Virus record (IMG/VR): IMGVR_UViG_3300030397_000229 | Span: 42,972 to 106,971 of that record | Origin: a virus | Length of the DNA stretch: 64,000 nucleotides | Reading direction: 5' to 3' (one strand) | In this document: piece by piece, positions 7,346 through 44,156 of the stretch | How the letters are laid out: each line of letters opens with the position of its first letter | How positions within the stretch are numbered: position 1 is the first letter of the stretch | The notes under the pieces: model-generated | The model's input: only the letters and a program-made list of their open reading frames with translations | Database searches by the model: none | Told to the model about the DNA's origin: nothing | Program-made: the position numbers and the translations under genes

Positions 7346-8503
7346 ATGCCTAGGACTTTAAAGACACTTGCTCAGATGAATGCTGATGCTCTGGAGTATC
7401 TATCCGAGAACACAGAGGTCACATATCTGTCTGAGGGGTCTATTGCTAGAGCCTTGGTTGAGGCTACTAACGTTGAGATATCTAATCTACAGGAGTACAT
7501 AGCATCCACGTACTCTAATGTATTTATCAACAGTGCTACTGGTCCATTCCTGGACCTACTTGGAGAGCAGCTGGGAGTCAAGAGACTGGGTGGTGGGGCT
7601 GCTTCCACCAGCGCTGAAGACCAGAACGTCAAATTCAGTGTCACCACAGGTAGATTGGGAGATTTCTTCCAGGACCCAGGTGACTCTAACAAGGGCTTGA
7701 TCTCAGGTGGACTGACAGTGTCTACTGCTGACAGCTCTGTATCATATCAAGTTGCTGAGGATGTCCGGTTTAATCGGAATCTTCGGGAAGTTTTCGTACC
7801 AGTTCTAGCTGATAATGCTGGAGCTGCATCTAATGTAGGCCGTAATAAACTTGTATCCCATAGTGGATCTTCAGCTGTGAACGTGACTAACCTGAAGACC
7901 ATTAATAATGGAAGAGATATAGAGACGGATAGAGAGTACAGGTTTAGACTGGCCAACCAAATAGCTGCCTCACCCAGCGCCAATGAGATAGCTATTAGGC
8001 TAGCGGTAATCGGTAACGCAGATATATCAAGTGTAGAGTTGAGAGAGTTTGCTAGGGGCGCAGGAACATTTGATGCGTTACTTGTCCCAGTGAGAAACAC
8101 ACTGAGTAGACGAACTAAAGAGGTGGTGCAGAACGCCATCAACAGTACATCAGCGTTTGGTATAAGCGGCAGGGCTCTGGACCCAACATATGTGACATTT
8201 AGGATATCCGTGCAGCTCATACCTCTTGAGGATGCGCCAGCAGGAGTGCTGGACTCTAACAGAATCAACGCCAAGAATGCTATACTAGATCACTTCGAGG
8301 GCATCCCTATTGGAGGCGAGCTAGTCATTAATAGATTGAGAGCTGATATAGTCAACGCTATAACACAGGAAGTGAGAGATATCCGCATACTAGAGCTCTG
8401 TGTAGATGGCAGGCCTCATTCTATCCGCAATATAAAGCTCAGACCAGACGAGCTATTCACACCAGCGCTTAGCACTGACACCCAAGCTATTGAGGTGCTC
8501 TAA
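7346..8503 (+). CDS. Baseplate J-like wedge protein
   Basis: 385 aa with 'SEGSIARALVEA', 'ATGPFLDLLGEQLGVKR', 'GAASNVG', 'GRDIETDREYRFRL'. SD AAGGAGG at 7331-7337. Confidence 0.9.
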   Translation: MPRTLKTLAQMNADALEYLSENTEVTYLSEGSIARALVEATNVEISNLQEYIASTYSNVFINSATGPFLDLLGEQLGVKRLGGGAASTSAEDQNVKFSVTTGRLGDFFQDPGDSNKGLISGGLTVSTADSSVSYQVAEDVRFNRNLREVFVPVLADNAGAASNVGRNKLVSHSGSSAVNVTNLKTINNGRDIETDREYRFRLANQIAASPSANEIAIRLAVIGNADISSVELREFARGAGTFDALLVPVRNTLSRRTKEVVQNAINSTSAFGISGRALDPTYVTFRISVQLIPLEDAPAGVLDSNRINAKNAILDHFEGIPIGGELVINRLRADIVNAITQEVRDIRILELCVDGRPHSIRNIKLRPDELFTPALSTDTQAIEVL

Positions 8504-31626: not shown

Positions 31627-34364
31627 TGGGACTACTATCACAGATACAGAGACTCATAACTCCTGGTCATAGGGAGGCCATAAAGAAGGTCTTTGAGACC
31701 CTCAAGGCTAAGAGTCCATTCTCTAGTGACAGAGAGGCTCAGTTTGAGGCCAAGCGTCTTGTCAATAGGGTGGTAGATGCACAGGAGGAGAGAGTATTCT
31801 TCCCAGGGCTGGCTGAGTCTGGTGTTAAGATTAGCTCTGACTCTCATAATCAGAATATGGAGGGCGCGTTCATTGACCTCAATGCGCTGTACAAAGAGAC
31901 CTCCAATATAGGTGCTATACAGACACAGCAGACAGAATCGCTGCTTGATGACTTCGCCAAGGCCAGAGCTGCTATATTAAAACTGATCAATGATGCTCGT
32001 GTCTTTGCTATACGCAGCAAGTTCCCTGAATTTGATGACATCAAGCTCGTCAACTTCAATATCAGTAGGAACACATCCAAGGACAGCCCCACTGCACTGG
32101 TCGATCCTGACACTCGAACCCTCAAGCTACCTCAGCTACTAAAGAGGCGTAACCATCTTGAGAGGAGGGGCTTGCGCAAGACGGTTGCTAGTGTTGAGGT
32201 GCTAGGTCAGGGTCAAGTGGGGCAACTAAGCAGGCAGTTTACTCCGAACAGGGCGATAGACTCTAAGCGCGAGAGTTTCTGGGCCGAGGTGATATACTCT
32301 GATGTGGTCTTCCAGACAGTCTACAACAGATATGGCCCAGATGCTACTGGCAGCATGGTAGATATAATCAATGGCCCTGTCATCAGATATAAGCTGTCGT
32401 TCACAAATATCGAGGCCGTCAACCAGATCAAGATTCTCCCCTTTGGTGACTTCCCCATCAAGGTGCTTGAGATTACCTACAGGACTACCAACTCATCTCT
32501 GATCAGGGTTCCTGTTCCTGACTTCGTACAAGAGGAGAGCCTGGACTGGATGGAGTTTAACTTCGATACTGTCTTTGCCGCTGATGTAGAGATAGTATTG
32601 GCTCAGGAGACGTACAGGAATCTTGCTATCAGAGTGCCTAAGAATGTCCTGTTCTCAACTGACTTCTTCCTGAGGCTCATAGAGTCACGTACGAGTGATC
32701 TAAACAACCAGATACCACAGCTAGCTGATGTCAATGTTGGTGGTGTTAGTGCCATCTATGACGAGGCTGTGTCTGACCTGGCCTCTCTAATAGACACCAG
32801 AATACTAGAGAAGACACCGACCACTGAGATAGACCTTGCTGGCAAGACTATACTCTCTATAGGAGAGGCTCTTGTCAACTTCGATCCCTCTCTTGCTGAC
32901 CTGCTAGAAGAAGCCACAGTGTATACTGACAGCCTGCCAAAGCAGTTCCAGAATGAGATAGAGACTCTCAATAAGGTGGAGTATATTGTCGGTGCTCGTG
33001 AGATAGAGGCTAGCTATGTCATATACTCACCTATAGGAAACTATAGCTCTGAGAAGTTTGAGCCTGCTGCTACAGTCACCAATGTAGAGCTAGAGGTAGA
33101 TGAGAGACATCCTGTCTTTAGAGGCCCCTTTGGTGAGTTTAGAAGAACCTCCACTGAGTGGTCTATTGAGTTCTCACCTGAGCGCGTTGTGCCTATCTTC
33201 CCTGTAAATCAGGTAGAAGAAGGCTTCGTTAAGGTCAGAGGAGAGTTCCTAGATGTTAGCACCAATACATTTACGGGGCTGAGTAGATTTAGATCGCAGT
33301 TTGCCTTCGCTAATGTAAGAGAGAACGATGAGCTACTCACACCAGACGTAGACTATGATATGGTGTGGAACGACCAGTTTGAGGGTAGACTGCAGATAGG
33401 AATAAAAGAGGAGCGCTTTGATAGAGGCAAGCTATATACCATAGACTATATAGGCCATCCTCAGTCTACAGCTATAGATGTACTAGAGAAATTCAATGAC
33501 AAGAGGCTTGCCACTCCCGATATATTTGAAAATACTGGTCCTGATAATGACCTTGATCTTAGCTACTTCCCTTATGTCAACTACGGGATCATCAACTCTG
33601 ATGACTTCACCTATGATAGCAACGCAGACGCATGGGAGTACGAAGCACCCACTGGAGCACACACATCTGGCAGAGCCCAGATAACCCCTACCTGGCTACG
33701 AAATGATGGCTCTATTATACAGACACAGACGGGAAGCGTGCTCGTGTCTGGTATATCTGGCCTAGTGGATGGACCAACTGTGTGGAACCAGCTAGATCAG
33801 GACTTCTTTATAGAGCCATATGATTACTTCTTAAAGATAACCGATGTACCTGGAGCTATATTTAATGTCAAGGAGATATTAAATGACGATTCACTGGAGT
33901 TGGAAGATATACCAGTACTGGCTACAGGATTCATAGGAGATGAGATACCATTCTCCTCATTCATAGGAGACATCACCACTGGAGGATACATAAACGTCCC
34001 GTACTCCTTAGAAGTTGTGTACCGCAATGCAGAGCAGATATTCGGATTCGACAACGTGCTATACCAACCTGTTACAGTGCTCGTCGGTGGTACACCTGCC
34101 AAGAACATCACAGACTACCAAAACCTAGAACAACCCGCCTTCACTATAGGTACAGCTGAAGACGGTGAGTTTGAGTTCATCCACGATGGCAAGAAGATAT
34201 TCTTGAATCAGCCTGTTGTCAACACAGAGGTGTTGGTTGACTATAGGTGGTTGACTCAATATGCGAGGGTTAACTGTAGGCTGCGAGCTAATAAGGCAAT
34301 TACTCCCTCTATAACACCTCAGATAAATGAATTAAGAATGCTTATGAATACGACAATCTTGTAA
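31626..34364 (+). CDS. Structural protein, paralog A of local family
   Basis: 912 aa. Shares 'S..HNQNM...DL..LY', 'FWAEV', 'Y..GARE' and the C-terminal 'ITPQI' motif with ORFs at 35034-38690, 39397 and 42834. Confidence 0.6.
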   Translation: MGLLSQIQRLITPGHREAIKKVFETLKAKSPFSSDREAQFEAKRLVNRVVDAQEERVFFPGLAESGVKISSDSHNQNMEGAFIDLNALYKETSNIGAIQTQQTESLLDDFAKARAAILKLINDARVFAIRSKFPEFDDIKLVNFNISRNTSKDSPTALVDPDTRTLKLPQLLKRRNHLERRGLRKTVASVEVLGQGQVGQLSRQFTPNRAIDSKRESFWAEVIYSDVVFQTVYNRYGPDATGSMVDIINGPVIRYKLSFTNIEAVNQIKILPFGDFPIKVLEITYRTTNSSLIRVPVPDFVQEESLDWMEFNFDTVFAADVEIVLAQETYRNLAIRVPKNVLFSTDFFLRLIESRTSDLNNQIPQLADVNVGGVSAIYDEAVSDLASLIDTRILEKTPTTEIDLAGKTILSIGEALVNFDPSLADLLEEATVYTDSLPKQFQNEIETLNKVEYIVGAREIEASYVIYSPIGNYSSEKFEPAATVTNVELEVDERHPVFRGPFGEFRRTSTEWSIEFSPERVVPIFPVNQVEEGFVKVRGEFLDVSTNTFTGLSRFRSQFAFANVRENDELLTPDVDYDMVWNDQFEGRLQIGIKEERFDRGKLYTIDYIGHPQSTAIDVLEKFNDKRLATPDIFENTGPDNDLDLSYFPYVNYGIINSDDFTYDSNADAWEYEAPTGAHTSGRAQITPTWLRNDGSIIQTQTGSVLVSGISGLVDGPTVWNQLDQDFFIEPYDYFLKITDVPGAIFNVKEILNDDSLELEDIPVLATGFIGDEIPFSSFIGDITTGGYINVPYSLEVVYRNAEQIFGFDNVLYQPVTVLVGGTPAKNITDYQNLEQPAFTIGTAEDGEFEFIHDGKKIFLNQPVVNTEVLVDYRWLTQYARVNCRLRANKAITPSITPQINELRMLMNTTIL

Positions 34365-34384
34365 TCCAACACAGGAGGTGTGTT

Positions 34385-34981
34385 ATGCGTGCCCAAATCT
34401 TGGCTCTCTTGTTAATCCTTATTGGATGTGCGAGCCCTAACTTTGGCCCAGCTATAACCGAAGATTTTCGGAGCTTTGGGCCTATAAACGGGGACCCTAT
34501 GGTCAACCTAAGCCCGTTTACCTATGTACTACGCGTAACTAAAGATGGACAGACTTACTTTGGCAAATCATTTATAGTAAATGGCATTATCGTAGGACCA
34601 CAACATATGAACCCGAACCTAGAAGAAGACTATGACATCACGTCAGATAAACCTGATATCTGGCTGTATGGACAGAGCGAGGAAGAAGGCCTCGACCTAT
34701 GTCCACACTATCATGGTGTAGATTCTTGGGTTCACTATCACACCACTCGTGGTGTTGTGAGAATGGTAATTGACAGCTTTCAATCTTGGTACTACATGAC
34801 AAACTGTGAAATTCCAGTGCTACCTGGTGACTCAGGCTCACCAGTATTATGCAATGACCATGAGAAAGTGGTCGGTGTTGTATCAGGGAGAGGTGGCTGG
34901 AAGAGGCCTATAGGTTATATAGCCAAACTAGACCACAAAATATTGTTTGAACTACATAAGGCAAAGAAAGATGATGGGTAG
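34385..34981 (+). CDS. Trypsin-fold serine protease, predicted lipoprotein
   Basis: Lipobox 'LLILIGC'. Catalytic triad candidates H (GPQHM), D (KPDIWL) and S (GDSGSPV). SD AGGAGGTG. Confidence 0.75.
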   Translation: MRAQILALLLILIGCASPNFGPAITEDFRSFGPINGDPMVNLSPFTYVLRVTKDGQTYFGKSFIVNGIIVGPQHMNPNLEEDYDITSDKPDIWLYGQSEEEGLDLCPHYHGVDSWVHYHTTRGVVRMVIDSFQSWYYMTNCEIPVLPGDSGSPVLCNDHEKVVGVVSGRGGWKRPIGYIAKLDHKILFELHKAKKDDG

Positions 34982-35033
34982 ATGTCCTAAATGTGGAGGC
35001 AGAGGCAGATTTTGTACTTGCAGACGTAGATAA
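34971..35033 (+). CDS. 20-aa Cys-rich micro-ORF (MMGRCPKCGGRGRFCTCRRR)
   Basis: Missing from the ORF track. It overlaps the protease stop (ATGATGGGTAG), ends with TAA directly abutting the next ATG (35034), and carries a CPxCG motif. Confidence 0.55.
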   Translation: MMGRCPKCGGRGRFCTCRRR

Positions 35034-36071
35034 ATGGCTGACTTATTTAATACTATAGAGGTTAATCCCACAGATGCTGAGAAACTAAGAAAGCATCTGG
35101 AGTTGATTAAACAATCCCAAGACTCAAGCAGTGAGCTGGGTCAGGCTATAGGTACAGCTGTAGAGCAGTTTAATCAGTTCTTCTTGGACTACGGTAAGCC
35201 ATATTTTACTGCTCATGAGCTGAGATTAAATGAGACACCACAGTCTGAAGTGTACAACGAGAACATGCAGACACTGTCACAAGATATTGACAGACTGTAT
35301 AGCTCTCTAGTGTCAGCTTCTAGCACTACACTAACAGCATATAACTATGCTACCACAGTATCTAATCAAGTTAAGACTAATGCTCAGATTGCAGCATCTA
35401 AAGTACTAGATCTTAACATACTCAATAACTTCACCAAGGGGGCTGTCATAATAGCAGGCGATGACTTTGTCAACGCTGATAAAATTGATGGCTCCTTCGG
35501 TGTTGAAACTAGTAGAGCTGAGCTATTAAATGGTGCTAGCTCTATTACTCTAGCTAGAACAGGCTCGGAGATAGTGAGCACTCCGGACACGAGAATTACA
35601 GTTACTCCAGTACTGCCTGTGACAGCCGGAACTAAGATAGGAACAGATCCTACCCCCTTGAACCTAGAGCGGTTCTATGAGGGTAAGTTCTATGCAGAAA
35701 TAGGAGATATAAGACCTGAGGGAGCTAATCTTAATCTACAATATATAGTAGACCCTCAGAAAATACCAGGTAGAGCAGTAGAAACAACCGTAGACGGTGT
35801 TGTGGATGAAGACAGAAGTACTGAGATATCACCAGAGGAGGCCCTTGCTAGAGCAGATGGCGTGGGTTACTTTGCTATTATCTCTGCTACCGAAGAAGAG
35901 AAGCAGGCCGTTAGACGACGAATGATAGACAACAACCCAGCTACCTTCTGGGAAGCAGAAGTGGTGTTCTCCGCTGAGCCATTGATTGATCCTCTTCAGA
36001 CTGACAGACAGTTCAGTGTGAAGGGTGCTGAGATCTCCAGAAAGGGCGTTGAAGAAGAAGGTAATAACTAA
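35034..36071 (+). CDS. Structural protein, paralog B, fragment 1 (N-terminal)
   Basis: 'SEVYNENMQTLSQDIDRLY' and 'FWEAEV' match the N-terminal half of paralog A. Confidence 0.6.
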   Translation: MADLFNTIEVNPTDAEKLRKHLELIKQSQDSSSELGQAIGTAVEQFNQFFLDYGKPYFTAHELRLNETPQSEVYNENMQTLSQDIDRLYSSLVSASSTTLTAYNYATTVSNQVKTNAQIAASKVLDLNILNNFTKGAVIIAGDDFVNADKIDGSFGVETSRAELLNGASSITLARTGSEIVSTPDTRITVTPVLPVTAGTKIGTDPTPLNLERFYEGKFYAEIGDIRPEGANLNLQYIVDPQKIPGRAVETTVDGVVDEDRSTEISPEEALARADGVGYFAIISATEEEKQAVRRRMIDNNPATFWEAEVVFSAEPLIDPLQTDRQFSVKGAEISRKGVEEEGNN

Positions 36072-36607
36072 TGGTACTAGAGGTAGAAGGCTCGAGGCTT
36101 GCAAACTTCGGTGAAGGCACACAGATCACCATTGATTTCCAAGCAGCTGAGGAGATGGCTAAGAAGTTTGACTTCCAAGGCCGTGACCTGCAGTTGCATG
36201 TAGATTATGAGTTTCCTAATGCCAAGCCAGTTAACTTCGTAGTAATAGACCCAGTACTATTTGGTACGAGTGCCTTCGCAGAGGTTGTTGATGTGGCTAC
36301 ACTGTCAGAGGAAGGGGAGTTCGAGACAGTTGACGGCTTCGAGAATCAAGCCTTCGATAAGGTTCTTACTCCGGAGGCTAATAAAGTAATTGATGATGAC
36401 GTTATATCTAAGACCCTAGCACCATCTCAGTTCGCATATGAGGGACTAGGAGTCTTCGCCTTCCCACTTAGGATAACTACTAAGTTGAGGGTTACCCTCC
36501 TGATGAGAGATCCTGTGCCCAACATCTATGAGCGACTTCATGTACTTACTCAGGAGGTTATAACAGATACTATTGTGTCCAAGAAGAAAAAGAAAGGTCT
36601 GTTTTAA
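36071..36607 (+). CDS. Structural protein, paralog B, fragment 2
   Basis: 'GRDLQLHVDYEFPNAKPVNFVVIDP' aligns by eye with paralog A 'GPVIRYKLSFTNIEAVNQIKILP'. Ends in KKKKKGLF. Confidence 0.6.
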   Translation: MVLEVEGSRLANFGEGTQITIDFQAAEEMAKKFDFQGRDLQLHVDYEFPNAKPVNFVVIDPVLFGTSAFAEVVDVATLSEEGEFETVDGFENQAFDKVLTPEANKVIDDDVISKTLAPSQFAYEGLGVFAFPLRITTKLRVTLLMRDPVPNIYERLHVLTQEVITDTIVSKKKKKGLF

Positions 36608-37954
36608 CCATGAAACTATTTTATACAATCTTAGCTCTGTTTGCATTGGCAGTCGTGGCAGGTGGCCAGACTGTGATGACAGAGATACTACATGTAGATA
36701 CCACAGTAATCTCCCCTGTCCACCCCTACTATGGTACTATACAATCAGCTATTGACGCCGCCGATCACGGGGATACCGTGATGATATATGATGGCGTTTA
36801 CCATGAGAATCTGACTATATTACAGAAGGGTATAACTGTCATTGAAAGAGAGGGCCATACTGTCACAGTGTTTGGCCAACTGCGCGTGACGTACAATAAT
36901 CCGCCTGCCCTGTACTACTATAATATATTTAAAGGCATTGACTTTATCAATCATAATGTCCTAGATACTAGCACAGGAGCAGTCACAGTTCAAGATGGCC
37001 ACATCTTTGATACCGTAGAGAACCCAGTGTTCCTTGAGGACTGTTCTTTTATCAATGGCTCCGTAGGTCTAGCCAGTAACCTAGCAGGTCTTACTATGAA
37101 CGACTGCGGCAGGGTTGTCATAGTAAATTGCGCCTTTAACGGATCTAAGGGCTCACCAGAGTCAGGACCAGGACTTGCAACTAACAATGTAAGTCGCTTT
37201 TATATGTGGTCTAGTCTGTTAGTGGGTGGCATGGGTGCTATAGGCCCCAACAAGGCAGGTGATGGTGCTAGGTTAGATATACACGGAGAGTGTTTTCTTC
37301 AGGGCAATAACTTTATAGGAAGAGATGGTGAGGCAGGCTCTCTGCATACTGGAGGTCCTACTGGCCCAGTGTGCACTGAGGGAGGCAGTGGCGGTCATGG
37401 TTTAGATATCACTGCCCATGTTCTTAGGAGACAGGATAATATATTCACGGGAGGTGCAGCTGGCTTACCAATATCTGCCCCTTGTGTATCTGGCTTGCCT
37501 GGTCTTGGACTCAAGGCTCAGATAACCACTACTGACACTGTGCTGCCAGGGACAGCTAGAGATAACAGATGTGAATCATTCCTAGACGCTGGAGCAACAG
37601 GTGTCTTTGGTAGTAAGGGAGAGCCAGGCGATGTGTTCTTTGTTGTGCGGGCTGACCCTGGTGGTAATGGCTTTGCTTCCTTTCCTCACATAGGACATAG
37701 CTTTATAAAGAACACACAGTCTACAAGGGTTATAGCTGCTGGTGTTGTGGGCAGTGATGGCCAGATGACCACATTCTATAATATCACCCTGCCACATTCC
37801 CCAGCTCTAGGTTTATTCAGTGGTATATTATATGGTACTCACTGTGTTCAGACCGTATTCGTTAACATGGACCCAGCAGGAAATATATTCTACCTAGGAC
37901 CTCCTAATATAGTTACATACTACGACATTCCGTAATGGGTAAGAAGAAAAAGAA
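36581..37954 (+). repeat. 14-bp direct repeat AAGAAGAAAAAGAA flanking the 441-aa gene
   Basis: Identical 14-mers at 36581-36594 and 37941-37954, both encoding poly-Lys. Confidence 0.7.
36610..37935 (+). CDS. Secreted beta-helix (pectin-lyase-like/DUF1565-type) protein inserted within paralog B
   Basis: Signal peptide 'MKLFYTILALFALAVVAGG', motif 'YGTIQSAIDAADHGDTVMIYDGVYHENLTI', Gly-rich repeats. Confidence 0.6.
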   Translation: MKLFYTILALFALAVVAGGQTVMTEILHVDTTVISPVHPYYGTIQSAIDAADHGDTVMIYDGVYHENLTILQKGITVIEREGHTVTVFGQLRVTYNNPPALYYYNIFKGIDFINHNVLDTSTGAVTVQDGHIFDTVENPVFLEDCSFINGSVGLASNLAGLTMNDCGRVVIVNCAFNGSKGSPESGPGLATNNVSRFYMWSSLLVGGMGAIGPNKAGDGARLDIHGECFLQGNNFIGRDGEAGSLHTGGPTGPVCTEGGSGGHGLDITAHVLRRQDNIFTGGAAGLPISAPCVSGLPGLGLKAQITTTDTVLPGTARDNRCESFLDAGATGVFGSKGEPGDVFFVVRADPGGNGFASFPHIGHSFIKNTQSTRVIAAGVVGSDGQMTTFYNITLPHSPALGLFSGILYGTHCVQTVFVNMDPAGNIFYLGPPNIVTYYDIP

Positions 37955-38690
37955 GACCACAGAGGTCATCACCACTGTAGAGACCAAGGTCATTAAGCTG
38001 ACCTATCTACAGACTCTAGCTATATCTAATCAGCTAGCTAGTGCTCAGGATTTAGAGACTGGTGCGCAGGAGGGGGAGTTTGCGCAGGTCTCTGGTGACA
38101 GTGATGGCCCCAGTCCCCTGGCATTTGTGCCTGGATTTGGGATAGGTCTGTTCGGCAAGAAGAAGAAATCTGTCAGTGTCAAGACAGATACTTCAGGATT
38201 GCAGGTCAAGGATCAATGGCTACAGCCATACTTCAATAGAATTAGGTATGGTATAGGCATTAGAGAGCTGACAGCTGCTGCATATACATTTGACCAGAAG
38301 TCTGAGTTTGTGTCAGTGCCATTTGTGTCTCCCAAAGAGATTATCAAGGTACACTGTCTGGTAGACGAGTACATACCACCTCAGTTTGACCAAAATCAGG
38401 CATGGCTAGAGTACTTCATTAGAGTGGAGGGAGAAGAGAACTTCATCAGGATAAACCCACTCAATGCTCCTACTAGATTTGACGAGGCAGGCGAGATCAT
38501 TCCTAAGATCATAAACTTCAACCTGCCTAAGCCTACCACAGCTCAGCTGGAGGACAAGTTTAACACCACTGAGGAGCCTGTCAAGAAGATCCGGTTCAAG
38601 GCGGTACTAACTAGACCTACAGACGGGGATAGTGAGAATATTACTCCTTTGCTAAAGAGCTATAGACTAGTTATGACACCAAGACAGTAA
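37935..38690 (+). CDS. Structural protein, paralog B, fragment 3 (C-terminal)
   Basis: Starts MGKKKKK. 'RYGIGIREL...FVS' and the C-terminal 'ITPLLKSYRLVM' match the C-terminal half of paralogs A and C. Confidence 0.6.
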   Translation: MGKKKKKTTEVITTVETKVIKLTYLQTLAISNQLASAQDLETGAQEGEFAQVSGDSDGPSPLAFVPGFGIGLFGKKKKSVSVKTDTSGLQVKDQWLQPYFNRIRYGIGIRELTAAAYTFDQKSEFVSVPFVSPKEIIKVHCLVDEYIPPQFDQNQAWLEYFIRVEGEENFIRINPLNAPTRFDEAGEIIPKIINFNLPKPTTAQLEDKFNTTEEPVKKIRFKAVLTRPTDGDSENITPLLKSYRLVMTPRQ

Positions 38691-38691
38691 T

Positions 38692-38922
38692 ATGAACCTA
38701 CATGACATAGAAAGAAAATATTTCACCAAGGATCAGAAGAAGCAGATAGATGAATTTAAGCTTGCCCATAAAGAGTGTCGAGATAGTATTGGATATCAAG
38801 GACTAGGAGCTGCTGACTGCTTTTCTTACATATTTACGCATGGATCAATAGGTGATTATAATTCAATAATTTGTAGTGTATGCAATACAAAAGAAGACAT
38901 AACTGACGTAGACGTTTGGTAG
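38692..38922 (+). CDS. Small conserved phage protein (C-terminal CxxC)
   Basis: 76 aa with 'F..GSIG...IICSVC...EDITD..W' pattern, common in phage genomes as I recall it. AT-rich. Confidence 0.6.
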   Translation: MNLHDIERKYFTKDQKKQIDEFKLAHKECRDSIGYQGLGAADCFSYIFTHGSIGDYNSIICSVCNTKEDITDVDVW

Positions 38923-38923
38923 A

Positions 38924-39397
38924 ATGAATACTAACAGAATTCCCTTAAAAGATAGGATATTAAACAAGTTAGTTGAAGATCCTAATGGATGTATGATATG
39001 GCAAGGATATACTATCGAAGGATATGGCAGAATCAACGAAGGTGGTAAATTTAGCAAAAAGATATTAGTTCATAGGGCGCTTTGGGAGATCTATAATGGC
39101 CCCATCCCGGAAGGTAAGCTTGTCAGACATACCTGTGATAATAGAAGATGCTGCAACCTAAAACATCTGATACTAGGTACACATCAAGATAATTCACGAG
39201 ATGCGGTTTCCAGAGGTAGGATAGTTGCACATAAGGGCGAGGCTCATCATAACTCTAAGCTAACTAAAGAAGACATCTTAAGTATACGCAGATTGTATAA
39301 AGACGGCAAATCGCTCACAGAATTAGGAAAAGACTTCGATGTGACCATGCAAAATATATACTTAATCGTGAACAAAAAATCCTGGAGTCATATATAA
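38924..39397 (+). mobile_element. Free-standing HNH homing endonuclease (HNH_3 type with C-terminal HTH-like DNA-binding region)
   Basis: 'CMIWQG...GYGRI...VHRALWEIYNGPIPEGKLVRHTCDNRRCCNLKHLILGTHQDN...KGEAHHNSKLT'. A-run-rich composition unlike its flanks. Confidence 0.9.
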
Positions 39398-42354
39398 TGA
39401 CTTTATCATTACGCCAGTACCAGCGGGTCTATGATAGATTTTTGTTGGAATTCTTGCGAGAGGGTAAAGTCCCTACCTTTGATGAGGTACTGGTACGTGC
39501 CGGTGATGAGCTTCCTGATCCCAGTAAGCCTATAGCTCCTATCTATCAGTTCACACCTCAAACTAAGAGGGCTGTATTTGATATCCTCAATCACAACAGG
39601 TCTGTCAGGAATATCAAGACTGACCTTGAGTTGCTATTTGATGAGCTGAACCAGATACAGCTACAGAACATTACTCGTATTATCAATGCAGATCTGTTTG
39701 AGCACGTGCATTCTCATGAGCTCAACGTACTAACCAAACAACTCGACGCGCTACTATTCGCTTTAGAAGGAGCAGATGATAGCTTCTTTGCTAGGTTTGA
39801 GAGTTTTGATGATTTAACAAAAATTGACCTTGACAAGTCTACCCCAGGCATAGTGGATACCCACGAGGGAGCTCTAGCCCTACCTATAGGTCTAGCAGGT
39901 ACGTTCAAGATACCTCTTGAGCACCTGTCCTCCCTAAATAACACTCCGATTACCATCAGTGATTCTGCTGCGACCAACCTGGGTAATATACCAGGTACAC
40001 GATTTGGCAATATCTTCGCAGACTCCACGAATGCCTGGGGTGTGACTATTGAGTCTCCTAATGGAGGCCCACTTGAAGTTGAGTTCACCTTCCGACTCGC
40101 CAGGGAGGAGTTCATCAACAGGATGACCCTATTACACCATGGTCCTAACCAGCAGCGAGCCATTATAGCTACTAGTGTAGACAATGCCAATAGGGATCTT
40201 ATCCTAGAGTACTCAGAGGGTGTCCTGCTCTCACAACAGGCTGACCTCGTGTCTCTAGACTTTGATGACAAGCTGGTAGATTTCGTGCATGTGACCTTAG
40301 CTAAGGACACGCCGGACAGCTTTGATTCAGACCGCAATATACATACATACACATTTGGACTGAGAAACATCAGTATATATACTACTGGTAGAGCAAGGGA
40401 GGGTACATACGTATCTAAGGCATTTGAGTTTGATGAGGTAGATTCAGTGGGTCTGGTGGGTATATCAGCCAATGAACTACTGCCTGACAACACATCTGTC
40501 GACTGGTCTGTGGGTATAGTGGACGAGAATGACCAGGTGGTAGGCTCATTTATGCCTATTACACCTCAGTCTAGAAACGTCAGCTCTGGTCCACCCAAGA
40601 CTGTTAGTATACAGGACATTATAGAGAATCAAAAGATCTTTAGATCCACAGATGACAGCTTCACGAATATACTGTCCTTCAATAACATAGACTTCTATAA
40701 GGTCACCACCATAGACACACCCCCAGTGTTTGGCAGTGCCTTCTTATTCAGGGGTATACGCTCTTGGCTGAGGGATCAGTCCGAGGCAGTCAACCCTGTC
40801 CTAGTCAAGGACAACTATATACCCTTCTCCAAGGGTGATACCCAATCACTGTATAAGATCAGACAGGAGGTGGCGCCTGCTAACACTATAACAAACGATG
40901 CTGGTGAAGTCCAGACCGTCGTTGTGGTAGCAAATCCCCCGCTATATGACCAGGCCAAGGGACACTCGCTGATACCAGGTGAGGGCATAGATCCTGGACA
41001 GGACACACAACCTAACTATGCTGTATTGCTAGCTCAACTGAGCAATGCTCCCCTCACAGCAATCAAAGCAGGTCAGGACTTCTCTGCGGCCAACCCCGTA
41101 GACCTAGGAGTTAAGAATATACTATATAATACAGCCGGTGACATAGAGGTTAAGGATGAGTCGATAGAACGTATCTTCCTTGATGGCACTGACTACATTG
41201 TAGAGTTCACTGACGGCTTCCCGACAGGTAGAATACGTGCTCTGCCTGACTCTGATCTACTTGGGTACACAGATGATGAGGGTGTGGACCACCAGCCCAT
41301 CGTCAGTATCACATACAAGATAGATCCTGACATCAGTAGGTTTATCAGCAGTATAGCCAACTCACAGATCTACTTCGACTTCGATATCAGCACTCTGGGG
41401 CTCACACAGGCTGTCATCAAGTACAGGTTTGTTACCCCTAAGGTCATTAAGTCCTCAGTAAAGGCCAAAAAGCTGTTTGGTACTGTGAACTCCTCTGATA
41501 TATTTGTTCAGGGCGTGGACTATATCTTTGATGAGAGGACCAGCACCATACAGAGACTGACCACTGGCTCCATTGATCCAGGACAGGATATATACCTGGA
41601 CTATAAATTCAATGATATCTCAGACCAGCTAGAGCAGTTCTTCGTCTGGGCTCATGTTGACGATTTAGACGGAGTCAACATAGTGACGGCCAGAAAGAGG
41701 TCTACTGACCTGTCCGTACAGTCCACTCTGGACCCAGAGACAGACAGAGGAGAGGAGCTGTTCGTCAGTATTCCCGGAGTAGGCCTAGTTAACCTCAACA
41801 AGGCCGTAGAATGGCCCAAGTTGACAGGGTGGGTCCAATTCGTAGTAAAGTCCATCCCGCCAGAGGAGGACCTGGAGGGCAGTAGAGAGCCTCTCATACA
41901 CCAGGTCATTAAATTGAAGGATGAGGACGGAGACTTCATATTTGTCCAAGGCGGTAAATATTTTAGTGATCTGACTGCTATCAGGGAGCCCCTGAACCAA
42001 GTCGGATTCCAGTTCTTGAAGACAAATGTCCTCAAGAATGATGATAGATTCTTCGCTGTTAGGACCGTCAACCTAACGCCAGATATAACAGAGAACCAGG
42101 TCATAGTCAATTTCAAGCCAAACGAGAGTGAGAAGCTGTATCAGTACTCTCCAATACCTGACGTGGTAGGAGAGACCGGCGTGCTGAGTATCTATCCCAT
42201 CAAGGAGGAATGGAAGGTAGTTTGGTCAAATAGAGAGACGACTGTGGGATCATTCAACAAGGTAGTGGTGCGAGCTATGCTCACCAGGACAGCCGAAGCT
42301 GGTGGCAATGTCACACCCAAGGTATTTGACTATTTTGTCAAGGCAGGATTCTAA
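39397..42354 (+). CDS. Structural protein, paralog C
   Basis: 985 aa with 'HNRSVRNIKTDLELLF', 'YTFGLRNI...GTYVSK' and C-terminal 'VTPKVFDY'. Confidence 0.6.
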   Translation: MTLSLRQYQRVYDRFLLEFLREGKVPTFDEVLVRAGDELPDPSKPIAPIYQFTPQTKRAVFDILNHNRSVRNIKTDLELLFDELNQIQLQNITRIINADLFEHVHSHELNVLTKQLDALLFALEGADDSFFARFESFDDLTKIDLDKSTPGIVDTHEGALALPIGLAGTFKIPLEHLSSLNNTPITISDSAATNLGNIPGTRFGNIFADSTNAWGVTIESPNGGPLEVEFTFRLAREEFINRMTLLHHGPNQQRAIIATSVDNANRDLILEYSEGVLLSQQADLVSLDFDDKLVDFVHVTLAKDTPDSFDSDRNIHTYTFGLRNISIYTTGRAREGTYVSKAFEFDEVDSVGLVGISANELLPDNTSVDWSVGIVDENDQVVGSFMPITPQSRNVSSGPPKTVSIQDIIENQKIFRSTDDSFTNILSFNNIDFYKVTTIDTPPVFGSAFLFRGIRSWLRDQSEAVNPVLVKDNYIPFSKGDTQSLYKIRQEVAPANTITNDAGEVQTVVVVANPPLYDQAKGHSLIPGEGIDPGQDTQPNYAVLLAQLSNAPLTAIKAGQDFSAANPVDLGVKNILYNTAGDIEVKDESIERIFLDGTDYIVEFTDGFPTGRIRALPDSDLLGYTDDEGVDHQPIVSITYKIDPDISRFISSIANSQIYFDFDISTLGLTQAVIKYRFVTPKVIKSSVKAKKLFGTVNSSDIFVQGVDYIFDERTSTIQRLTTGSIDPGQDIYLDYKFNDISDQLEQFFVWAHVDDLDGVNIVTARKRSTDLSVQSTLDPETDRGEELFVSIPGVGLVNLNKAVEWPKLTGWVQFVVKSIPPEEDLEGSREPLIHQVIKLKDEDGDFIFVQGGKYFSDLTAIREPLNQVGFQFLKTNVLKNDDRFFAVRTVNLTPDITENQVIVNFKPNESEKLYQYSPIPDVVGETGVLSIYPIKEEWKVVWSNRETTVGSFNKVVVRAMLTRTAEAGGNVTPKVFDYFVKAGF

Positions 42355-42830
42355 TGCAAAAGCTTATTTTATACTTCATGTTGGCACTAATGATTTCTAT
42401 ACCGGTTGGATGCGCCGGTCTAAAGCCAAGCCTAAATGACCCTGCATTCAGGGACGAGATACATGACTTCAGAGTAGAACTTGAACCTCTGATTGACGAA
42501 TATTTCCTGCTCACTAGGCCAGACGGCCAGAGCGATAGCTGGGAGAGGCTAAAGGAACAGCTAGATGTGGTTGCCACTGTATGGGATGCCTATCTAGATG
42601 ACCCTACAGACGAGAATAAGAGTGAGCTTGTTCTCATGCTGAGTCTGGCGTTGGATCTAACAGATGCCATGTTGCCTCATATCACCGGTGATGAAGAGAA
42701 GGTGCTCACTATACGCCTTGGTATCAGAGCTATACAGCTAGCTATACGCAGAGCTGCTAGAAACCTCGATGAGCCAGAACTAGAGGCTGAAGCAACTCGC
42801 AGTATGGCTGCATTTAAAGCAGTGGAGTAA
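42354..42830 (+). CDS. Predicted lipoprotein, helical, unknown function
   Basis: Signal peptide with lipobox 'LMISIPVGC' followed by an all-alpha mature region. TAATG-coupled. Confidence 0.55.
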   Translation: MQKLILYFMLALMISIPVGCAGLKPSLNDPAFRDEIHDFRVELEPLIDEYFLLTRPDGQSDSWERLKEQLDVVATVWDAYLDDPTDENKSELVLMLSLALDLTDAMLPHITGDEEKVLTIRLGIRAIQLAIRRAARNLDEPELEAEATRSMAAFKAVE

Positions 42831-42833
42831 GAC

Positions 42834-44156
42834 ATGACCCAGGAACTTAGAATAGTCCAGCCCCGTATTAAGCGGAGGCCTGCTAGATTTAGAGGACCAC
42901 TGTCCTCAGAGGAGTATAATGACATTCAGGATGAGGTATTCTCTGACATCATAGCCCTGTCTACTGCTGTCAATACCAACAACAACCTGCTAGTCAACTC
43001 ACTCAACCAGATCTACCAGGAGCTCCAGAATATACGTGGTAGGACCTCCCAATTAGAGGAGAAGGATGGTTACAGGGAGTTTGTTTATGGTAGCCATGCT
43101 GTCAATATTGATAAGTACCTGGATTTCCATGATGCTACTCCCATCAACTTCCCTGCAACAGTGCCTGCTGACAAGGCTGCCTCATATAAGAGTCAGTTTG
43201 GTGAGATAGCACTGCCCATAAATGCAGTGGAAAACAAGTTCTATAACTTCTCCCTCAGAACCTCAGAAATCATCATTCCATCCGACTTCTCAGCTGAAGC
43301 AAATGGTATATTTGACAAGGCTGATGGCAATGGCACTCAAGACTATGAGAGTGGTGGTCTGGTTAATGAGGGAGAGGTGAAGAACGCGTTCAACGGTATC
43401 AATGAGACCGTATGGTCGCGCACTGTTACGTTCCCCCTGGAGTCTGACGTAGATGAGGTTGAGGTACAGCTCACAGCTGTAGTCCCAGCAGGCATATCTT
43501 CGCAGGCTAACCTCTTAGAGGTGGTCCCTTATCCAGAGGGCAACGTAGATATCACGTCACTGTCTACTGCTGGTGACTTAGGGGAGTCCTTCCTGATGGT
43601 GGATAACTTTGGTGAGCTAAATAACGCTGTAGCCAAGAGATTCCACTTCTCTCCACGTAATGTAGAGCAGGTAAGGATACGACTCAGGTCTAGAAACTGG
43701 CAGGAAGTCAATGGCAAGAAGGTATTTACCTATGGGCTCAGAGAAATGGGCCTCAAGCTAGTAGATTACAAGAAGGAATTTATAGATTCAGATGGCTTCG
43801 GACAAAATCCGACGGTGGTGGTACAAATTTCCCCGCCCAGTAACCACTCATTCAACACCCTCTTCAGGGTCGACCCGGTACCGAATTTCCTCCTGGAGGA
43901 CGTATCAAAAAGACATGTTAGACTACGTCTATCGTCAACTCCTGACCTCTCCGGGACGATATGGGACTCCGCGGTTGACATACCACCTCAGCTTGGCGTG
44001 GGCACCGGCATTGACCTGGGTGGCGTATCCAACCTATATGGGATTTATACACTCAGATTCGTCGAAAACTCAGGTGGGTTCCAATCGCCCTTCCCAGTGG
44101 GTACCACACCTACAGTGAACGGACTAGGCCTACTATTTAAGGCTATACCAAACTAA
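42834..44156 (+). CDS. Structural protein, distant paralog D
   Basis: 440 aa with 'RFRGPLSSEEYN...DIIAL' and 'FTYGLREM' matching the family motifs. Confidence 0.55.
   Translation: MTQELRIVQPRIKRRPARFRGPLSSEEYNDIQDEVFSDIIALSTAVNTNNNLLVNSLNQIYQELQNIRGRTSQLEEKDGYREFVYGSHAVNIDKYLDFHDATPINFPATVPADKAASYKSQFGEIALPINAVENKFYNFSLRTSEIIIPSDFSAEANGIFDKADGNGTQDYESGGLVNEGEVKNAFNGINETVWSRTVTFPLESDVDEVEVQLTAVVPAGISSQANLLEVVPYPEGNVDITSLSTAGDLGESFLMVDNFGELNNAVAKRFHFSPRNVEQVRIRLRSRNWQEVNGKKVFTYGLREMGLKLVDYKKEFIDSDGFGQNPTVVVQISPPSNHSFNTLFRVDPVPNFLLEDVSKRHVRLRLSSTPDLSGTIWDSAVDIPPQLGVGTGIDLGGVSNLYGIYTLRFVENSGGFQSPFPVGTTPTVNGLGLLFKAIPN

Follow-up and report, generated by a model that had tools for sequence, protein, structure and literature searches.

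Evidence for a recurrent fission point in a virion structural gene that doubles as an accessory-gene slot in an uncultured myovirus lineage

We analysed a 64,000-nucleotide stretch of viral DNA (the window; positions 42,972 to 106,971 of IMG/VR record IMGVR_UViG_3300030397_000229) in which what appears to be the gene for a single virion structural protein is carried as three open reading frames (ORFs), f1, f2 and f3, with a 441-amino-acid gene, here called the cargo, lying between the second and the third. The source is a metagenomic virus contig, a 123-kb record estimated to be 64% complete, which contains a myovirus-type tail module with baseplate wedge PHROG matches at 7346-8503. The three ORFs are in different reading frames, and their junctions are tidy coupled stop/start overlaps, as elsewhere in the operon. 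An earlier interpretation made from the letters alone (the sequence-only reading) had described a structural gene broken by insertion of the cargo, and its ORF coordinates, stops and starts proved correct. In positions of the window, the elements of the locus are as follows.

35034-36071, plus strand: f1, 345 amino acids, the N-terminal third of the putative split virion structural protein; its TAA and the ATG of f2 have one base in common.
36071-36607, plus strand: f2, 178 amino acids, the middle piece; C-terminus SKKKKKGLF followed by the stop, its last strand being the predicted first arm of a broken beta-hairpin.
36581-36594, plus strand: left copy of the 14-bp direct repeat AAGAAGAAAAAGAA, in Lys codons of f2 and encoding KKKKK.
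36610-37935, plus strand: the cargo gene, 441 amino acids, beginning 2 nucleotides after f2; its TAA overlaps the ATG of f3.
37935-38690, plus strand: f3, 251 amino acids, the C-terminal piece; N-terminus MGKKKKKTTEV, its first strand being the predicted second arm of the hairpin.
37941-37954, plus strand: right copy of the 14-bp direct repeat, in Lys codons of f3.
38145-38168, plus strand: a second, intact GLFGKKKK motif, residues 71-78 of f3.

Removal in silico of 36605-37937 (1333 nucleotides) reproduced the proposed in-frame GLF/GKKKK join, reading ...SKKKKKGLFGKKKKKTTEV, and the second GLFGKKKK motif that had been pointed out is present. Because an independent Logan assembly (L022; run SRR4039773 has an identical contig) is base-for-base the same as the window across 35979-38719, both junctions are present in a second assembly. 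It is the only other contig with this exact locus, and it also has the insert.

The three ORFs correspond to consecutive parts of full-length proteins. The 710-amino-acid protein P0101 is tiled without gap or overlap by f1 (residues 7-278), f2 (292-422) and f3 (422-706), and the syntenic position in contig L019 is held by a fused 710-amino-acid gene, which together argue that f1, f2 and f3 are pieces of one ancestral gene, with full-length orthologues of 710-830 amino acids. Two of the pieces match PHROG 21108 ('virion structural protein'), f1 over positions 37-179 of the profile (E 2e-10) and f3 over 470-618 (E 3e-16). The sequence-only reading had compared the pieces with an intact paralogue in the window. 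Their collinearity holds with orthologues such as P0101, whereas paralogy inside the window is only partial and weak: an all-against-all BLASTP of the window ORFs at E 1e-3 found no paralogue of f1, f2 or f3, and hhalign related the N-terminal ~130 residues to the 985-amino-acid family encoded downstream (window 35034-35500 against 39397-39900; probability 80%, E 1.3e-5) and the f3 core to the 912-amino-acid family with a probability of only 26%. The split-protein and 985-amino-acid families may thus share a common N-terminal attachment module of tail-module proteins.

A full HMMER scan returned 268 homologues of f3. Among the 150 f3 matches listed, the match either reaches the C-terminus of proteins of 640-940 amino acids or forms a stand-alone protein of ~240-290 amino acids, a few being ~430. 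Searching with the f1+f2 protein of a relative recovered proteins of 310-375 amino acids (f1 alone, seen in many relatives), 470-580 (f1+f2), about 430 (f2+f3) and 780-826 (all fused). Stand-alone homologues of f1, f2 or f3 occur in some 70 contigs or more. Fusion of f2 to f1 is found in L001 and L020, and fusion of f2 to f3 in L003-5. The order of the 912-amino-acid gene (PHROG 20243), the split protein and the 985-amino-acid gene (PHROG 19683) is kept in 10 of 10 distinct related arrangements (L001, L003, L006, L008, L009, L013, L015, L018, L019 and L020; duplicate contigs are L004, L005, L010, L014, L016 and L021). At the DNA level, a blastn search with the locus found nothing among 50,697 phage records; a scan of viral contigs with f3 gave no relative, and one with f1 gave a single locus, L001.

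Over 55% of its length, the 912-amino-acid neighbour is 24% identical to ORF171 of Bacillus phage 0305phi8-36, a protein annotated as identified in virions by mass spectrometry; the virion evidence is confined to the mass spectrometry by which the 0305phi8-36 homologues were annotated. In that phage, Hardies et al. assigned the genes downstream of orf151 to baseplate, fibre or appendage components (PMC2147016). These comparisons probably place the split protein in the baseplate/fibre module of a myovirus lineage that is uncultured and a distant relation of that phage. The likeness to gp171-gp173 (PHROGs 20243/21108/19683) consists of the 912-amino-acid gene resembling ORF171, on which the sequence likeness rests, together with the PHROG 21108 match and the conserved order. 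It differs in that single ORFs (ORF172, ORF173) are annotated downstream of ORF171, and in that both the fissions and the Lys-rich GLF hairpin motif are features of the environmental subfamily.

We compared the boundary between f2 and f3 in relatives in which it is split, where it is found both empty and filled.

L001: f2 ends KSKKKGLF-stop; 18 nucleotides, no cargo; f3 starts MGSKKKKK.
L006: f2 ends KKSGIF-stop; 1 nucleotide, no cargo; f3 starts MGKKKK.
L013: f2 ends KKSGLF-stop; TAATG overlap, no cargo; f3 starts MGKKKK.
L015: f2 ends SKKGLF-stop; nothing between, no cargo; f3 starts LGKKKK (from TTG).
L008: f2 ends KKKSLF-stop; a 117-amino-acid gene with a lipobox and a C-terminal membrane helix; f3 starts MGKKKKKTT.
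L018: f2 ends KKKGL-stop; a gene of the 390/397-amino-acid class; f3 starts MGKKKKKKKV.
L009/L010: f2 ends KSKKKGLF-stop (L009); a gene of the 390/397-amino-acid class; f3 starts MGKKKSKKKKT.

The break is empty in four of the eight split relatives examined. Since L001, L006, L013 and L015 share the break and its ends, it exists without cargo, and L001 has two in-frame stops. The proposal that this cargo made the break is therefore not supported, as these cargo-less relatives are split with (G)LF-stop and MGKKKK-type ends. The sequence-only reading had advised looking in loci lacking the insert for a contiguous gene, and had taken separate ORFs with unrelated ends as the outcome that would count against it; four cargo-less relatives are split and others are fused (KKKLFKKKKK), and where separate ORFs occur their ends are related. 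Numerous independent contigs, with proteins 50-67% identical, show the piece boundaries again with conserved lengths and ends. The nearest relatives of this phage have the same three pieces and no cargo, so both breaks most likely arose before it. Because those pieces also have equal ends, the boundary appears to behave as an ordinary, translationally coupled gene junction. With three unlike cargo genes or none at it within one clade, it also appears to be a recurrent insertion slot.

The cargos found at the boundary (441 amino acids in the window, and 390/397 and 117 amino acids in relatives) have no detectable mutual sequence similarity; BLASTP and hhalign found no homology of those in L008, L018 and L009/L010 to the window cargo. 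We call the window cargo class A, the 390/397-amino-acid cargos class B and the 117-amino-acid gene class C. The cargos of L018 and L009/L010 are 80% identical and have an Arg-rich N-terminus, a Pro-rich linker and beta-helix-like repeats. Classes A and B were treated as not homologous because the comparison gave a BLASTP E of 0.016 over 17 residues and an hhalign probability of 3%. The simplest reading of these sequences is that the boundary was already split and was then filled independently several times.

Where the gene is fused, the residues across the break site can be read directly. Fused relatives read KKKKKGLFKSKK, KKKLFKKKKK and KKKRTLFGTKKK there, as the sequence-only reading had anticipated for the ancestor; fused f2+f3 proteins have KKKKKGLFKSKKSTK in P0078 and TKKKLFKKKKKTT in P0079-81 and L003-5. 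Distant full-length proteins keep a basic-hydrophobic-basic motif (KKKRTLFGTKKK in P0101, KRRLWKKKR in P0107 and KKKKKRFGKVKRK in P0162). These alignments indicate that the basic-GLF-basic motif was formerly contiguous. In L020 (5960-6040) the GLF codons are duplicated round the stop and start, so that the product ends ...KKGLFA-stop and the next begins MGLFSKK (DNA GGACTATTTGCATAATGGGACTGTTC, TAATG GGACTGTTC). L020 thus appears to be an independent fission of the same hairpin tip, and since no cargo is present a short tandem duplication alone can split the gene.

A tree of the ~985-amino-acid neighbour gene groups the window with L006, (L008, L013) and (L009, L018) with support of 100/100. 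All members of this clade are split between f2 and f3, L009 being cut upstream of f2 and the other five having the three-way split, and their cargo states are A in the window, none in L006, C in L008, none in L013 and B in L009 and L018. In the f3-domain tree, built from 149 rows, 23 changes are required to explain the stand-alone state, of which at least 7 are forced by well-supported branches, with the caveat that some short proteins may be truncated gene calls. Fission thus appears, from these sequences, to recur across the family.

To place the break in the protein, we used AlphaFold2 models. The fused protein P0081, modelled from a 64-sequence alignment (mean predicted local distance difference test score (pLDDT) 87.7, predicted template-modelling score (pTM) 0.67), has a strand at 150-172, a turn at 173-176 (K-L-F-K) and a strand at 177-195. 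As the model puts the K-L-F-K turn there, the f2-f3 break is predicted to fall at the tip of a long Lys-rich two-stranded beta-hairpin. The second GLFGKKK(K) motif maps to a Gly-rich, low-confidence loop (232-245), and the N-terminal 16 residues of the f2+f3 model are disordered. The f1-f2 break lies in a variable acidic linker, and stand-alone f2 starts MV in the window, L006 and L008. Foldseek with the fused f2+f3 model against the PDB found nothing at E up to 0.001. VIA-align found CBM32/discoidin-like jelly rolls at Z 7-7.7, a middling score in a range that the tool calls common, with aligned model residues 36-296 lying on both sides of the break. This suggests that the hairpin is part of an intertwined beta-sandwich made of residues from both sides of the break.

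We then predicted the complex of the window's own f2 and f3. The interaction prediction score from aligned errors (ipSAE) was 0.61 (best control 0.00), a mark that 58 of 80 solved complexes attain, as do 2 of 110 mismatched pairs, although these counts hold only roughly here because we used our own alignments. Runs agreed in at least 87% of contacts, and partner pLDDT was at least 77. No solved complex resembling it was found, so the prediction does not simply reproduce a known structure. In the predicted interface, f2 residues 147-173 meet f3 residues 5-24 and 76-117, the last strand of f2 lying between two strands of f3. The result shows compatibility of f2 and f3 in the model, not binding, and f2 and f3 plausibly reassemble by strand pairing. 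The sequence-only reading had held that an insertion was tolerated because the protein reassembles; reassembly is plausible, the f2+f3 prediction having passed its controls, whereas the insertion as cause is not borne out.

The cargo itself has no detectable sequence homologue. Two word-based searches of 5.8 billion proteins, with the whole cargo and with residues 25-200, returned only the cargo, and there is no second copy in the phage record. Its GC content (0.462) and codon usage (r 0.76) are like those of the phage, and it is compositionally ameliorated. The N-terminus, MKLFYTILALFALAVVAGGQ, reads by eye as a signal-peptide-like helix. Pfam Beta_helix (PF13229) matches below threshold (E 0.05, 13.7 bits against a cut-off of 25.9), and the ESM Atlas model of the exact protein (pTM 0.80) has right-handed beta-helix clusters as structural neighbours at template-modelling (TM) scores of 0.45-0.50; AlphaFold2 without an alignment gave an unusable model (pLDDT 33.6). 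The Atlas neighbours in feature space are unnamed Planctomycetota clusters, noted here as a lead only. Neither Pfam nor PHROGs detected a nuclease domain, and a single ORF fills the gap, both as the sequence-only reading had described. Scanning for promoter- and terminator-like sites showed no enrichment and no signals enclosing the cargo. The cargo is probably a right-handed beta-helix protein that is exported and is produced late, along with the tail genes; with low confidence, it may bind or degrade surface polysaccharide or be adhesin-like.

Together these data support a model, which we consider likely, where the pieces of one virion protein are translated separately, the breaks predate this phage and the f2-f3 boundary has repeatedly been used as an accessory-gene slot. 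In this model f1, f2 and f3 would each be translated from what was formerly the gene of one conserved structural protein of ~710-830 amino acids. As the two hairpin arms are predicted to pair in trans, the pieces could reassemble without covalent joining. Lineage-specific genes would have slotted repeatedly into the boundary once it was split, giving three unlike cargo classes within one well-supported clade.

Several points weigh against this model. L003 (f2+f3 fused), L001 (f1+f2 fused) with L015 (three pieces), and the clade of the window form a polytomy. Within the close subfamily the changes may therefore have run either way, as fission or as re-fusion, and the pattern requires one or more re-fusions or parallel fissions. 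The cargo-less split forms could be secondary losses. The alignments for the complex prediction were cut from fused homologues, and two halves of one gene should pass under those conditions. The shared sandwich is drawn from aligned ranges and a contact list only, the fold and export of the cargo from the Atlas model, a sub-threshold Pfam match and the look of the N-terminus, and the existence of three separate polypeptides from the nucleotide sequence alone.

One rival account puts the insertion first, and we regard it as unlikely. A mobile gene, possibly a nuclease gene since replaced, would have hit the intact codons of the hairpin tip and supplied the stop and start; the cargo-less split genes would then be secondary deletions and the three cargos successive replacements. 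Apart from a stop, a start and a few bases the break adds nothing, which is the trace that a coupled cassette would leave. Insertion between the F and G codons also fits the G of MG-KKKK, because the full-length outgroup P0101 has LFGTKKK. Some boundaries carry footprint-like duplications: the 18-nucleotide spacer of L001 (9540-9563) repeats a degenerate copy of the f2 end AAAGG..TATTTAA, and ATGGGAAA occurs twice at the cargo end in L008 (8950-8975). Set against this, four of the eight split relatives are empty, none of the three cargo classes is a nuclease and they are without detectable homology, the turn in L020 was broken by a short tandem duplication with no cargo, and more events are needed than for a pre-existing boundary later used as a slot. 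The 14-bp repeat that the sequence-only reading had taken as flanking the insertion is real, AAGAAGAAAAAGAA occurring exactly twice in the window against 0.01 expected. It fails as an insertion mark: of the eight relatives measured, four, cargo-less L013 included, have Lys-codon repeats of 7-10 nucleotides on either side of the boundary, and we interpret the 14-bp repeat as Lys-codon sequence rather than a target duplication.

Insertion first has a precedent in phage Aeh1, where nrdA is split by the free-standing homing endonuclease gene mobE and the pieces assemble non-covalently (Crona et al. 2010, PMC3045599). In both cases an essential phage gene lies in adjacent ORFs with another gene between them and reassembly needs no splicing, although here reassembly is predicted. 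The intervening gene in Aeh1 is the nuclease that broke nrdA, and tails made by the insertion mediate assembly. In contrast, the occupant here is not a nuclease, no residues are added except the initiator Met, and the break is also found empty or with unlike cargos; an HNH gene is present, but beyond f3 and a further ORF rather than between the pieces.

A second possibility, which we judge very improbable, is that a fused f2-f3 is restored part of the time by excision of the 1333-nucleotide insert, by splicing of RNA or protein, or by translational bypass, the switch that the sequence-only reading had offered. The in-frame result of deleting 36605-37937 and the perfect 14-bp direct repeat flanking the insert would suit such a switch. 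Recombination between the repeats, however, would remove GLF-stop...MG and not yield the GLFGKKKK join. Rfam detected no intron or ribozyme in 34000-40000 at E up to 1, and because one ORF fills the insert, with a 2-nucleotide spacer upstream and a 1-nucleotide overlap downstream, there is no room for a ribozyme. A split intein is opposed by the meeting of f2 residue 178 and f3 residue 1 at P0101 residue 422 with no spare residues, and Pfam found no intein domains. Bypass would have to cross a complete 441-codon ORF, 1333 nucleotides being far beyond the gap of ~50 nucleotides given for T4 gene 60 (10.1101/2022.08.31.505936). Cargo-less relatives are still split, L001 with its two in-frame stops, and L022 has the insert as well. 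The switch thus finds no support. The order of piece, inserted ORF and piece recalls the 'fractured genes' of environmental phage-like DNA, in which split inteins have a free-standing endonuclease between their halves (Dassa et al. 2009, PMC2677866), but there are no intein halves here, f2 and f3 meeting at a single P0101 residue, and the inserted ORF is not an endonuclease.

That the locus is a frameshifted or interrupted pseudogene, or a misassembled contig, deserves almost no weight: its pieces are in different frames and the metagenomic contig is incomplete, but boundaries, lengths and ends are conserved across the many independent contigs noted above, with proteins 50-67% identical; every junction has its stop and start tidily coupled by overlap, and an independent assembly is identical across both junctions.

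Returning to the model of a split boundary used as a slot, neighbouring junctions of the operon also carry additional genes.

34385-34981, plus strand: a trypsin-like lipoprotein gene at the junction upstream of f1, lineage-specific (Pfam Trypsin, E 2.8e-4).
38692-39397, plus strand: a low-GC cassette of a 76-amino-acid Cys-containing ORF and an HNH_3/helix-turn-helix (HTH) homing-endonuclease-like gene at 38924-39397.

The trypsin-like gene has no counterpart in L003, L006, L008 or L015. A 188-amino-acid gene of weak likeness (BLASTP E 3e-4) holds its position in L013 (4435-5001; also in L014), and L018 has an unrelated 230-amino-acid gene there, so the junction upstream of f1 may, by this comparison, be a second junction slot.

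The HNH_3 gene (Pfam E 5e-16) has a GC content of 0.373 and codon-usage r of 0.29, and the 76-amino-acid ORF a GC content of 0.351 and r of 0.45, which are foreign to the operon. The cassette was not at the junction of f3 and the 985-amino-acid gene in L003, L008, L009, L013 or L015. It looks, from composition and distribution, like a recent mobile cassette separate from the cargo. The suggestion that the HNH gene mobilised the cargo was rejected: no link was found, the cassette (GC 0.35-0.37) is unlike the cargo (0.46) in composition, and none of the relatives with other cargos (L008, L009, L018) has an HNH gene at that place.

Other genes of the module are noted in passing. A 158-amino-acid ORF of the window (42354-42830) has a lipoprotein-type signal (...IPVGC), and relatives have genes of 217-241 amino acids there. 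In L020 (3589-4233) a 214-amino-acid PAS-domain gene (PF08447; weak PF00989 and PF13188) lies between the 905-amino-acid structural gene and the f1+f2 gene; a sensor-type PAS domain is unexpected in a tail module. In the 117-amino-acid slot gene of L008 (8600-8953) a lipoprotein signal (LAISSC) at the N-terminus is combined with a membrane helix at the C-terminus, as in unimolecular spanins of the T1 gp11 type. It would be unusual for a lysis gene of this layout to lie within a tail operon.

The cargo resembles morons in being a lineage-specific gene with an export signal at a junction of a conserved structural operon, and the window has at least three such insertions. It differs in that no promoter or terminator of its own was detected, its composition is not foreign, it is translationally coupled on both sides and the junction used is a fission point inside an ancestral gene. 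A further idea, to which we give quite a low probability, is that the tip of the hairpin serves as a dedicated slot for cassettes. Related phages would swap accessory genes there, with the purine-rich tracts of Lys codons acting as portable microhomology arms; the tight coupling from f2 through cargo to f3 would tie cargo dosage to that of the baseplate protein; and cargos with a beta-helix (classes A and B) might even bind to the split protein and work as exchangeable enzymes of the virion.

The description that suits the locus best is a point of recurrent fission in a virion gene which also serves as a slot for accessory genes; it is not a new mechanism of gene restoration. For annotation, many 'hypothetical' ORFs of 180, 250 and 345 amino acids in a widespread uncultured lineage would be parts of one protein. 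The predicted structure offers a reason why a break in a virion gene is tolerated, since it falls in a hairpin turn whose arms could pair in trans. Through such a break, a fission point would turn into a site where accessory genes can land repeatedly in a structural operon that is otherwise rigid, and the genes found between the pieces, lineage-specific and probably involved in host interaction, are worth study.

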